Assembly: GCA_964202905.1 (NCBI GenBank)
Contig: CAXNJO010000004.1
Location: 32,001-96,000, forward strand
Direction: 5' to 3'
Length of the DNA: 64,000 nt
Origin: Polyangiales bacterium
GTDB taxonomy: Bacteria; Myxococcota_A; Polyangia; Polyangiales; JADJQN01
The number at the start of each line of letters is the position of its first letter. Position 1 is the stretch's first letter. Below the pieces are notes generated by a model. The model saw nothing but the letters and a program-made list of their open reading frames with translations, was not told where the DNA came from and did no database searches. Position numbers and translations under genes: made by a program. Shown one piece after another: positions 37,728-46,457 of this stretch.

Positions 37728-40700
37728 TCAGTAGTTGCAGCAGCGGAAGCCCGTGTTCTGGAAGCGGAACGAGCTCGAGCCGACCGTGAAGTCGAACTGG
37801 CATGTGCGCCCGATCTCGACGTTGTTGTAGCTGCCGCCGCGGATGGCGAAGACGCCCGTCGACGGGGAGGTGTTCGTCCATTCCTTCACGTTGCCGCTCA
37901 GGTCACGAACGACGCCGCCCGACCAGGTCGTGCCGCACATCGGGAACGTGGTGGAGCCCGTCGTGAAGAGCGCGTCTTGATCGCCCGCGAGCGTGGCGTT
38001 CGAGTCGTACTCGTCGCCGTTGCAGGTGAGCGTCGAGCTCGCGCGGCAGACGGTCGCCGCGCCCGCGTACGAGTAGAAACACGGGGTCGCGGCGACGGGG
38101 CCTTCGCAGGCCTCCCGCCAGTCGAGCGCGTCGCAGAGGCGCCAGCCCGTCGCGCCGCAGGTGCCCGAGGGGTTGAGCGCGCAGCACGCGGCGGCCGCCT
38201 CGGCCTGCGTCACGTTCGTCCACGGCTGCACGTTCGCGCGGGAGCACGCCACGGTTCTCGCGGCGCCCGCGCCGGTGCTGGTCGCGTCGGGGCGGGACGC
38301 CTCGTACTGCATGATTTGCATGGTGCCGCCGGCCGCCTTGTTGACGGTGACGGTGGCGATGTTTGCGAGCGGGATGCTCTCGTCGGTCGCACCGTCGCAG
38401 TCGTCGTCGAGGTTGTTGCAGGACTCGGTGGCGGCGGGGGGCCCGGCGACGACCGGACAAATGACGCCGTTCTGGGTCGCGTTGCAGCTCCAGGTGCTCG
38501 TGCGGCGGCACGCCCCGACGCCGACGGCGCACGCCGTCCCGCGCGTCGGGTAGAGCTCGTCGACCGCGCCGTCGCAGTCGTTGTCGAGGTTGTCGCAGCT
38601 CGACTCGATGGCCTGGAAGGTGGCCGGGTACGTGCAGCGCCAGCCCACCGCGCCGCCGCAACTGGCTGCGGTGCCGGCGCAGACGCCGTTCGCGTTGCAG
38701 AAGTTGGTCGGTGCGGTGAGCCCTTCGTCCGTCATGCCGTCGCAATCGTCGTCGCGGCCGTTGCACGCCTCGGCGCCGCTCACCGTGCACGCGTACTCGC
38801 ACCCATCGGCTGGGTTGCCGTTGAGGTTCACGAAGCCGGGGGCGCAGCCGCTGAGCCCGCAGACGCCCGCCGTGCAGGCCGCGACGCCGTTGGGGTAGCT
38901 GCAGCGGTTCCCGCAGGTTCCGCAGTTGTCGATGCTGGTCGACTTGTTGAAGCCGTTGTCGATGACGCCGTTGCAGTCGTCGTCGCGCTCGTTGCACGAC
39001 TCGAAGGTCGCGACGACGCCGCCCGTGCAGACGAGGACGCCGCCCGTGCAGGTCTGGGTGCCGCGTGCGCATTCGCCGGTGTCGGTGCCGCAGGCCGCAC
39101 CGCCGTCGGGGTTGCCTTCGTCCACGGACCCGTCGCAGTCGTCGTCGCGGCCGTTGCAGGACTCCGTGCCGGGGCCGACCGAACCGGTGCAGGCGAGCGC
39201 GCCGCCGGTGCAGACGTTGACGCCCGCGCTGCACTCGCCCGTGTCGCTGCCGCAGCTGGTGCCGCCGCCGGGGTTGCCCTCGTCCACGGACCCGTCGCAG
39301 TCGTCGTCGCGGCCGTTGCAGGTCTCCGTCGTGGAGCCGACCCCGCCGGCGCAGGCGAGGACGCCCGCCGAGCAGGTGATCGTCCCCGCGCTGCACTCGC
39401 CCGTGTCGCTGCCGCAGCTTGCGCCGCCGCCGGGGTTGCCCTCGTCGGTGGAACCGTCGCAGTCGTTGTCGCGGAGGTCGCAGACCTCCGTCTGCGCACC
39501 GCGCCCGCCGACGCACGCAAACGCGCCGGCGACGCAGAGTTGAGACCCCTGGCGGCACTCGCCGATGGCCGAGCCGCAGGCGCCGGGGCTGGGGATGCTC
39601 TCGTCGGTGCTGCCGTCGCAGTCGTCGTCGATCGCGTTGCAGCTCTCCGGTGTCGGATCGACGCCGCCGACGCACTCGAACGCGCCGCTGGTGCAGGTGA
39701 GCACGCCCGTCTCGCACGCGCCGGTCGCGGTGCCGCAGGCCGCGCCGCCGCCGGGATTGCCCTCGTCGATGCTGCCGTCGCAGTCGTTGTCGAGCCCGTC
39801 GCAGAGCTCGAGTGAGGCATCGACGTTGCCGGAGCATTGCAGGCTGCCCGACACGCAGACCTCGGTGCCGGTCGCGCACTCGCCGACGGCCGAGCCGCAG
39901 AGTCCGCCGCCGCCGGGGTTGCCTTCGTCGACGGTGCCGTCGCAGTCGTCGTCGACGCCGTTGCAGGTCTCGACGCCGGGTCCGACGCCGCCCGTGCAGA
40001 CGAGCGCGCCGCCCGTGCAAACGCGCGAGCCGGCTACGCACGCGCCGATGTCCGAGCCGCACGCGCCGCCGCCCCCGGGGTTGCCCTCGTCGGTGCTGCC
40101 GTCGCAGTCGTCATCGACGCCGTTGCATGACTCCGTGCCGGGGCGGACTGCCCCTTCGCAGAGGAGCGCGCCCGCGCGGCACCGGAACACGCCCGTGGAA
40201 CAGGCGCCCGTGTCGTCGCCGCACGTGCCGCCGCCATCGGGGTCACCCTCGTCGACGGAGCCGTCGCAGTCGTCGTCGAGCGCGTTGCAGGACTCGGCCG
40301 CCGCCCCTGTCGCGCCCAGGCAGACGATCGCGCCTGCGGTGCACACCGTGGTTCCCGGACTGCACTCGCCGACGTCCGTGCCGCACAGGTCGCCGCCGCC
40401 CGGGTTGCCGTCGTCGACGGATCCGTCGCAGTCGTCGTCCACCGCATTGCACGTCTCGTCGGTCGCGCCGACGGCGCCCTCGCAGACGACGACGCCGCCG
40501 CGACACGCGAGCGTTCCCGCGACGCACGCGCCCTCGTCACTGCCGCAGCTCCCGCCGCCGTCGGGGTTGCCGTCGTCGATGGCGCCGTCGCAGTCGTCGT
40601 CGAGGCCGTTGCAGACCTCGGTCACCGGGCCGACCGCGTCCGTGCAGACGAGCGCGCCGTCGGTGCAGACCTCGCGGCCCTGCGTGCAGGCGCCGGTGCC

Positions 40701-46457: not shown

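Follow-up and report, generated by a model that had tools for sequence, protein, structure and literature searches.

The window analysed here is a 64,000-nucleotide stretch of a Polyangiales bacterium genome (GenBank assembly GCA_964202905.1, contig CAXNJO010000004.1, positions 32,001–96,000), and its reverse strand carries a giant gene in which two halves, termed A and B, are joined by an internal membrane hairpin. The gene unites in one frame what relatives encode as a pair of overlapping genes, and we consider it probable that its product is a polyprotein cut at the hairpin into two lipid-anchored, length-matched surface partners. An initial annotation of the window had pointed to a stop-free frame of ~2,900 aa with a MYXO-CTERM signal in mid-chain; the frame, the GGGGCVC motif, the helix and the RRRRK cluster were all recovered, with unchanged coordinates. 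The parts of the gene, in window coordinates, are as follows:

37728–46457, reverse strand: single open reading frame (ORF) without stops, 2,909 aa, ~284 kDa, predicted precursor of halves A and B
46463–46466, reverse strand: ribosome-binding site GGAG, 6 bases ahead of the ATG, which is the sole supported start
46374–46457, reverse strand: Sec signal peptide, aa 1–28, read from the sequence, with a predicted type I cut after A-L-A
45582–46361, reverse strand: vWA domain, the tip of half A, with the metal-ion-dependent adhesion site (MIDAS) residues D-x-S-x-S, T and D
42618–45578, reverse strand: stalk A, made of 20 repeats rich in Cys and Asp (PF11617), most of them 53–55 aa long
41898–42617, reverse strand: basal Cys-rich region of half A, without a Pfam match
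41790–41897, reverse strand: D-x-G linker, acidic and Pro-containing, ahead of the first anchor
41667–41789, reverse strand: internal MYXO-CTERM-type signal (GGGGCVC, helix, RRRRK)
41634–41666, reverse strand: inter-helix loop of 11 residues, basic, with no acidic residue, predicted to be cytoplasmic
41583–41633, reverse strand: internal lipoprotein-type signal, a hydrophobic helix followed by a lipobox-like T-G-G-C
41424–41582, reverse strand: predicted start of mature half B, a conserved C-x-V-x-P-Y/F-C-x-x-C followed by a D-x-G tether
38358–41423, reverse strand: stalk B, with 18 repeats, again of the PF11617 family
37731–38357, reverse strand: FGE-sulfatase-like domain, the tip of half B

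The GC content at third codon positions is 0.89–0.98 in every full 100-codon block of the ORF, junction included. The N-terminal signals of homologues end in AxAQ. The assignment of a vWA tip to half A held: the region matches the Pfam VWA model weakly (E = 0.0027), its MIDAS residues D-x-S-x-S, T and D are invariant across 22 rows, and a profile of the region matches solved vWA domains (best E = 2.4e-10). The tip of half B scores 25.2 bits against PF03781 (cut-off 23.3) and its profile matches SUMF2/FGE structures (best E = 3.9e-11), identifying the domain, presumably a lectin fold as first labelled, as FGE-sulfatase-like. A search of the Atlas returned only MopE/FGE clusters. AlphaFold predictions made without alignments reached a mean confidence (pLDDT) of only 30.6 for the vWA region and 49.6 for the junction, the latter with two helices; both values are too low for the models to serve as evidence.

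At the junction, GGGGCVC occupies aa 1557–1563 (41789–41769) and contributes Cys1561 and Cys1563. The first helix spans aa 1580–1592 (41720–41682; Kyte–Doolittle hydrophobicity 2.45) and runs into RRRRK (aa 1593–1597; 41681–41667), completing the signature of Cys motif, helix and Arg cluster. The N-terminal signal peptide expected of a MYXO-CTERM protein is likewise present. Beyond the 11-residue loop, a second helix (aa 1609–1620) leads to STGG-C, with Cys1625 at 41585–41583, and to an acidic D-x-G linker. This matches the second hydrophobic segment that had been placed ~10 residues downstream, and the likeness of the linker to that of a lipoprotein gene at 55639 was also borne out, the latter showing a lipobox-like LAAC before its own D-x-G linker. 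The make-up of the second signal is that of a lipoprotein, with seven basic and no acidic residues, a helix hydrophobicity of 1.78 (family mean 2.45) and Gly at −1. The predicted products have masses of ~149 kDa (A) and ~126 kDa (B), and the hairpin between the predicted cuts comprises ~61 residues.

We aligned 39 junctions, 35 from the family of the giant gene and 4 unrelated to it. Their mean identity is 34%, and the only invariant columns are the MYXO-CTERM Cys, one Arg and the lipobox Cys. The loop carries 4–13 basic and 0–3 acidic residues across junctions, and the residue at −1 of the lipobox is Gly in 36 of 37 cases (Ala in the other) and in all 33 of a second homologue set. The hydrophobicity of the helices is similar in fused and split homologues (2.58 versus 2.52 and 2.45 versus 2.43). 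Half B contains an odd number of cysteines in all 73 complete cases (54/54 fused, 19/19 split), and half A, not counting the MYXO-CTERM cysteines, an even number in 56 of 60. This parity indicates, indirectly, that the first cysteine of B is likely free, as lipidation needs.

The annotation had noted no convincing ribosome-binding site or start codon between the helices, and we found none: the GTG and TTG codons that lie in frame around the junction (41765, 41744 and 41630) have no Shine–Dalgarno (SD)-like run ahead of them, and the junction of the giant gene lacks an SD-led internal start. An SD-led in-frame start 13–45 codons before the lipobox Cys is present in 21 of 24 split pairs and in 2 of 42 fused genes, the background being 34 of 349 control windows. 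The lipoprotein signal thus lies at the N-terminus of a translated chain in 21/24 split homologues and not in the giant gene.

The relationship between fused and split forms was examined with a 360-aa junction query, which matched 48 of 61 genomes. Among the matches listed (150; 451 more), 30 and then 60 further regions were taken, and 16 loci without a motif match were dropped, leaving 70 distinct junctions, this genome's paralogues included. Forty-two of them are fused (39, plus 3 that run off their contig; spread over 26 genomes with 14 family codes) and 24 are split pairs (17 genomes, 9 family codes), so the homologues are not all separate genes and the fused junction recurs in Myxococcota. 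Two of the rest are frameshifted, one is a lone B gene and one is unclear. Both forms occur side by side in twelve genomes. Where the pair is split, the A protein has its MYXO-CTERM at the C-terminus and the B protein is an ordinary lipoprotein that starts at the equivalent cysteine; the stop and start codons overlap (ATGA, GTGA, TGATG or TAATG) in 20 of the 22 pairs with the A stop located.

A second search, started from the C-terminal domain among proteins of 1,599–5,091 aa, gave 104 new proteins. Thirty-six end in that domain, and every one has the hairpin, which a script detected in 33 and inspection in the other 3. That the parts follow one another identically in the 42 fused homologues and in these long proteins places the arrangement beyond chance. 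Five homologues that appeared to lack a hairpin (P0028, P0033, P0049, P0069 and P0101) each have one on inspection. Named homologues come from Sandaracinaceae, Polyangiales and other Myxococcota records; the cultured species Sandaracinus amylolyticus carries a fused copy (WP_236604012.1). When the fused/split label is mapped on a tree built from 58 sequences that flank the junction, it switches 10 times, counted without direction, and at least 8 of these changes are forced by supported branches. A single change suffices in 0 of 200 bootstrap trees (bootstrap not fully settled). One fully supported sister pair consists of a fused paralogue from this genome and a split pair from the same genus.

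Several individual loci deserve mention. A split paralogue in this genome (L161, C1:140712–145.8k) has a TGATG overlap, a strong ribosome-binding site and 4/3 repeats, and a paralogue of the giant gene (L159, C1:~358,700) has a frameshift between Cys motif and first helix, which is either an error or the mark of a pseudogene. Homologue P0033 has an N-terminus resembling a lipoprotein signal and a vWA motif only at residue 871; its half A may have two anchors. A conserved neighbour gene was sought and rejected, since the largest real cluster covers 9 of ~70 loci and the bigger clusters were antisense frames.

The two stalks match in length, and in the family this is the rule. The giant gene has 20 repeats in A and 18 in B, as first estimated. 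Among 35 pairs with vWA and FGE motifs, repeat counts of A and B correlate with r = 0.989, A minus B being 0–4 and mostly 2 over a range of 4/3 to 29/26. For the 12 split members of this set, r = 0.985. The second search, with few sequences shared with the first set, gave r = 0.988 for 29 pairs. Independent contrasts (n = 35), on a tree built without the repeat arrays (36 rows, quick search), gave r = 0.981 and a slope of 0.97 (0/5,000 permutations). Of 20 large contrasts, 17 have the same sign and 3 show no change on one side, and long forms stand at three separate places in the tree. Measured as array span in residues, the correlation is 0.998 (22 hand-picked proteins). A subfamily with the same stalks and junction, in which DUF4114 forms the A tip and a BNR propeller the B tip (L154, L044–L053, L072 and L097), gives r = 0.89 (n = 11).

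Paralogues within this genome differ in height (20/18, 9/7, 4/3 and 11/9), so the match is set per pair and not per cell. Compared with the common 13/11 form, the giant gene has seven extra units in each stalk, each block consisting of six units of 54 aa and one of 53 aa. Stalk units are 58–85% identical in DNA, and no pair of an A and a B unit exceeds 81%. We therefore rejected recent copying between the stalks, and the match is not explained by a single recent event. Homologues P0117 and P0031 have units of two lengths in alternation along each stalk (~55/51 in A, 54/60–63 in B), as if the stalks grew by two-unit steps in register. Because A would be anchored C-terminally and B N-terminally, equal arrays would bring both tips to one height. 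The two products probably act as a length-matched pair, and we infer that A and B make contact.

The hairpin also occurs elsewhere in the genome. A scan with TIGR03901, a model that places no demand on a second signal, gave 46 rows, of which 38 show Cys, helix and basic cluster; the match is terminal in 29 of these and internal in 9. Eight of the nine internal cases continue in frame into another signal, a lipobox in seven and type I in one, and the ninth breaks at an apparent frameshift. With one further type I case from a pattern scan, nine intact genes of this build are present; a hidden Markov model (HMM) built from this genome found fewer internal cases than either of these scans. The joined halves, given in chain order, are unrelated: NIDO with MopE repeats, an amidase with an unknown domain, peptidase M10 with an unknown domain, immunoglobulin (Ig) repeats with a barrel/OmpA, and glycosidase GH15 with alpha-amylase. 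Across 250 genomes of the phylum, a hairpin profile retrieved mostly ordinary terminal signals. We inspected 28 stop-free, nearly full-span rows (24 genomes, 12 family codes) among the matches listed (150; 474 more), and all 28 have a second hydrophobic signal, a result partly built in because the profile itself asks for a second helix. These second signals comprise 24 lipoboxes, 3 type I signals before barrel/OmpA-like domains and 1 without a clear cleavage site.

At four loci (L155, L176, L206 and L209) the hairpin stands ahead of outer-membrane barrel/OmpA domains. Such a barrel could not reach the outer membrane uncut behind an inner-membrane hairpin. It must therefore be freed, which argues that the second signals of this build are cleaved. 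As read from these sequences, the hairpin is a general device in Myxococcota that joins unrelated proteins. The initial annotation mentioned neither this spread of the hairpin nor the one internal MYXO-CTERM already in print.

The eight further genes of this genome that combine an internal MYXO-CTERM-type signal with a second export signal (loci L151–L158) lie at C2:764668–762038, C2:620017–618638, C3:414205–416358, C5:316673–309633, C5:387415–384206, C6:126355–130614, C6:352983–357986 and C1:260368–268516; among them, the gene with Ig repeats and a barrel/OmpA has a TraAB-like build. Locus L160 (C10:115628–120754) carries two MYXO-CTERM-type signals, one internal and one terminal, together with a second signal that is broken and with apparent frameshifts, and could encode two C-terminally anchored proteins in one chain. 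In another genome (L178, G072:C72:432–1571) a MYXO-CTERM-type signal reads on in frame into a membrane helix and then a domain without a Pfam match, which we take to resemble a Tad/TadG pilus-type N-terminus.

The machinery for both signals is encoded in the genome. A myxosortase core scores 119.7 bits against NF040914 (cut-off 100), 22 matches exceed the TIGR03901 cut-off, and LspA, several Lgt-family proteins and GspD are present. Six Lgt-family loci (C1:561910, C4:375443, C10:72009, C2:176047, C7:199384 and C1:721490) and one LspA were noted, and the extra Lgt paralogues are candidates for lipidating MYXO-CTERM cysteines. The window itself holds a CPBP/Rce1-like membrane protease gene (34606–35256, reverse strand), 2.5 kb downstream of the giant gene. 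We rejected it as the myxosortase, as it is absent from the four NF040914 matches.

From these parts we infer the following route, in which cleavage, lipidation and surface delivery are predicted. Sec would export half A until helix 1 acts as a stop-transfer sequence; the Arg-rich loop would remain cytoplasmic, and helix 2 would restart export, now of half B. The MYXO-CTERM Cys would be lipidated and a myxosortase would cut after lipidation, giving A with a C-terminal anchor. Lgt and LspA would process Cys1625, giving lipoprotein B with an N-terminal anchor, and the hairpin would be discarded. Both products would be delivered to the surface, A at least via the type II secretion system. There the disulfide-rich stalks, running in opposite chain directions, would stand side by side and hold the vWA and FGE-like tips at one height, where they may form one two-part adhesin or receptor head, with the MIDAS binding a ligand or the partner tip. 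Fusion would set a 1:1 ratio, which overlapping stop and start codons would approximate in split pairs.

Several results weigh against this polyprotein model. The junction scores 9.9 bits against TIGR03901, below the cut-off of 20, so the check with the MYXO-CTERM HMM proposed in the initial annotation came out negative; 26 of the 39 aligned sister junctions match TIGR03901 at E ≤ 1, and that of the giant gene is not among them. The lipobox-like T-G-G-C has Thr at −3, a position occupied by Leu, Val or Ile in the textbook consensus. Across all 65 complete pairs, broken frames included and pairs cut by a locus end left out, the repeat counts of A and B correlate with r = 0.91, and the length match has exceptions at 16/22 (P0049), 22/17 (P0069), 13/9 (L064) and 8/11 (P0090). 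Tips are not fixed partners, DUF4114 occurring with an FGE tip in P0024 and P0049 and with BNR elsewhere. An SD-led start that could serve internally is kept in the two fused junctions mentioned above and in 4 of the 28 unrelated hairpins. According to PMC11980579, uncleaved TraA is partly surface-placed in myxosortase mutants, so the first signal may be cut in only a fraction of the chains.

Part of this evidence suits a chain that stays uncut or is cut once, as a two-helix inner-membrane protein with periplasmic arms or with only B released. An uncut hairpin would need arms of matched length too, uncleaved TraA can persist (PMC11980579), the first signal scores below its cut-off, and our literature searches brought up no account of Lgt/LspA acting far from an N-terminus. 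We nevertheless regard this explanation as unlikely: both cysteines are invariant though the sequence between them drifts, the lipobox Cys has no disulfide partner by parity in 54/54 fused cases, fused and split forms interchange at least eight times with unchanged signals, and the same hairpin precedes outer-membrane barrels. Alternatively, the chain may be cut as proposed and the halves may be separate adhesins whose lengths match through a common outside target or layer. The variation of tips among subfamilies and the few pairs differing by 4–6 repeats would fit such a picture, which seems to us quite unlikely given that paralogues of one genome differ five-fold in height yet match within pairs, that the seven-unit blocks added to both stalks of the giant gene are equal in unit lengths, and that P0117 and P0031 show alternating unit lengths in both of their stalks.

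The remaining explanations concern the reading frame itself. Half B might be made from its own internal start, the long ORF representing two genes with a lost stop codon; a TTG lies 15 codons ahead of Cys1625, an ATG or SD-led GTG is kept in a few fused junctions, and one of the paralogues in this genome has retained a Met at −21. The junction codons have no SD-like run, however, a signal starting at that TTG would contain no basic residue, SD-led starts are no commoner in fused junctions than in the background, and loss of the stop codon would in any case leave A joined to B. We hold this to be highly improbable. An assembly or sequencing error masking a stop or frameshift is scarcely credible. 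Two similar genes of the assembly do contain apparent frameshifts (C1:358.7k and C10:119.2k), and the proposed read check across 41550–41800 succeeded in part: public contigs from two runs match 41641–41932 without gaps or indels, and no public contig covers 41552–41640, which includes the second helix, a further point against the polyprotein model. No public run holds half of the sampled words, and a single contig from an RNA library is not evidence of transcription. Against an error, homologue P0002 (2,931 aa, 3 member sequences) is fused at the equivalent place, as are the 42 fused junctions in 26 genomes.

Among known systems, the closest precedent is MXAN_5598 of Myxococcus xanthus. In PMC11980579, MrtX cleaves terminal MYXO-CTERM signals, and the internal MYXO-CTERM of MXAN_5598 is called rare and atypical; its authors suggest that two genes fused, and in their proposal the N-terminal part undergoes processing and is anchored at the surface. 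The protein was detected in outer-membrane vesicles by mass spectrometry, through one peptide (741–755 of 2,699) in 3 of 3 vesicle samples (PMC4158809), which lends weak support to such a precursor yielding outer-membrane products. Like the giant gene, it combines a large adhesin region, an internal MYXO-CTERM and a second exported part. By contrast, what follows its internal signal is not a lipoprotein but a barrel of the outer membrane together with OmpA, and the accessible text of PMC11980579 describes no second signal, lipoprotein partner or paired stalks.

The giant protein shares with the MYXO-CTERM/myxosortase system (TraA, MXAN_4924; TIGR03901, NF040914) the Gly-rich Cys motif, helix, Arg cluster and N-terminal signal, together with the myxosortase core and GspD. 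It differs in its sub-cut-off score, in the second export signal that follows and in position, 1,312 residues lying between RRRRK and the C-terminus, where the available portion of bioRxiv 2023.06.07.544157 places such signals. That portion does not contain the words 'internal', 'polyprotein' or 'fused'. The overlapping genes traA and traB (PMC6372800) also pair a MYXO-CTERM protein with an exported partner and set a Cys-rich stalk beneath a variable tip. In the giant gene, by contrast, the partner half is a lipoprotein with a length-matched stalk of the same family, and domain scans did not find the TraA/TraB domains (PA14-like variable; barrel, TSP3, OmpA). Half B resembles bacterial lipoproteins in its basic stretch, helix, small residues, Cys and acidic tether, and its mature start is identical to that of split homologues; its signal differs in being preceded by 1,600 residues of the chain and by a first membrane helix.

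FbcH of Bradyrhizobium japonicum is reportedly a precursor cut mid-chain by a membrane protease, and NCBIfam 'midcut-by-XrtH' (NF033207) is alike, to judge from its model name. Both differ from the giant gene in using other enzymes and one cut, without a pair of lipid anchors; NF033207 is below its cut-off in this genome. Integrin alpha and beta chains form two membrane-anchored, disulfide-rich legs with a MIDAS-bearing vWA domain in the head. We see homology to integrins only in the vWA fold, and the giant-gene halves differ in having predicted lipid anchors, no cytoplasmic tails and legs of variable repeat number, with a heterodimer that is predicted. Each of the two signal types is known, and for a MYXO-CTERM inside a chain there is a single precedent. 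In the literature, subscription journals and bioRxiv supplements aside, we found no internal lipobox, no such polyprotein, no phylum-wide hairpin, no length match of twin stalks and no description of this family.

If the polyprotein model is correct, a bacterial lipobox can be used deep within a chain, and two sorting pathways divide one precursor into two surface proteins. Many single Myxococcota annotations such as 'MopE-related', 'vWA' or 'SUMF1' would then denote pairs (here nine intact genes beside 29 with terminal signals). The hairpin offers a portable unit for asking which enzyme lipidates the MYXO-CTERM cysteine and in what order, and it might be used to present a pair of proteins at 1:1. 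It is rare for two separate repeat arrays to co-evolve so tightly, and this gives the uncharacterised PF11617 repeat a clear structural role as a stalk unit. The findings suggest that two-part adhesins or receptors of this kind form a class not yet described. Tentatively, we also entertain a wider possibility, that the Myxococcota hairpin is a general polyprotein linker, comparable to viral signal-peptidase junctions, with Lgt/LspA acting 1,600 residues into a chain, and that the family is an integrin-like, two-legged receptor whose oppositely anchored stalks are kept equally high by selection, a molecular ruler present at several heights per cell.

Two other regions of the window were noted. 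The lipoprotein gene at 55639–56496 (reverse strand), with its D-x-G tether, shows a weak match to a lamin-tail domain (E = 5e-4). RCC1-repeat matches occur in two overlapping frames (56399–58606 and 56730–58469, both reverse strand), the first of which also matches peptidase M48, and the overlap is a possible frameshift.

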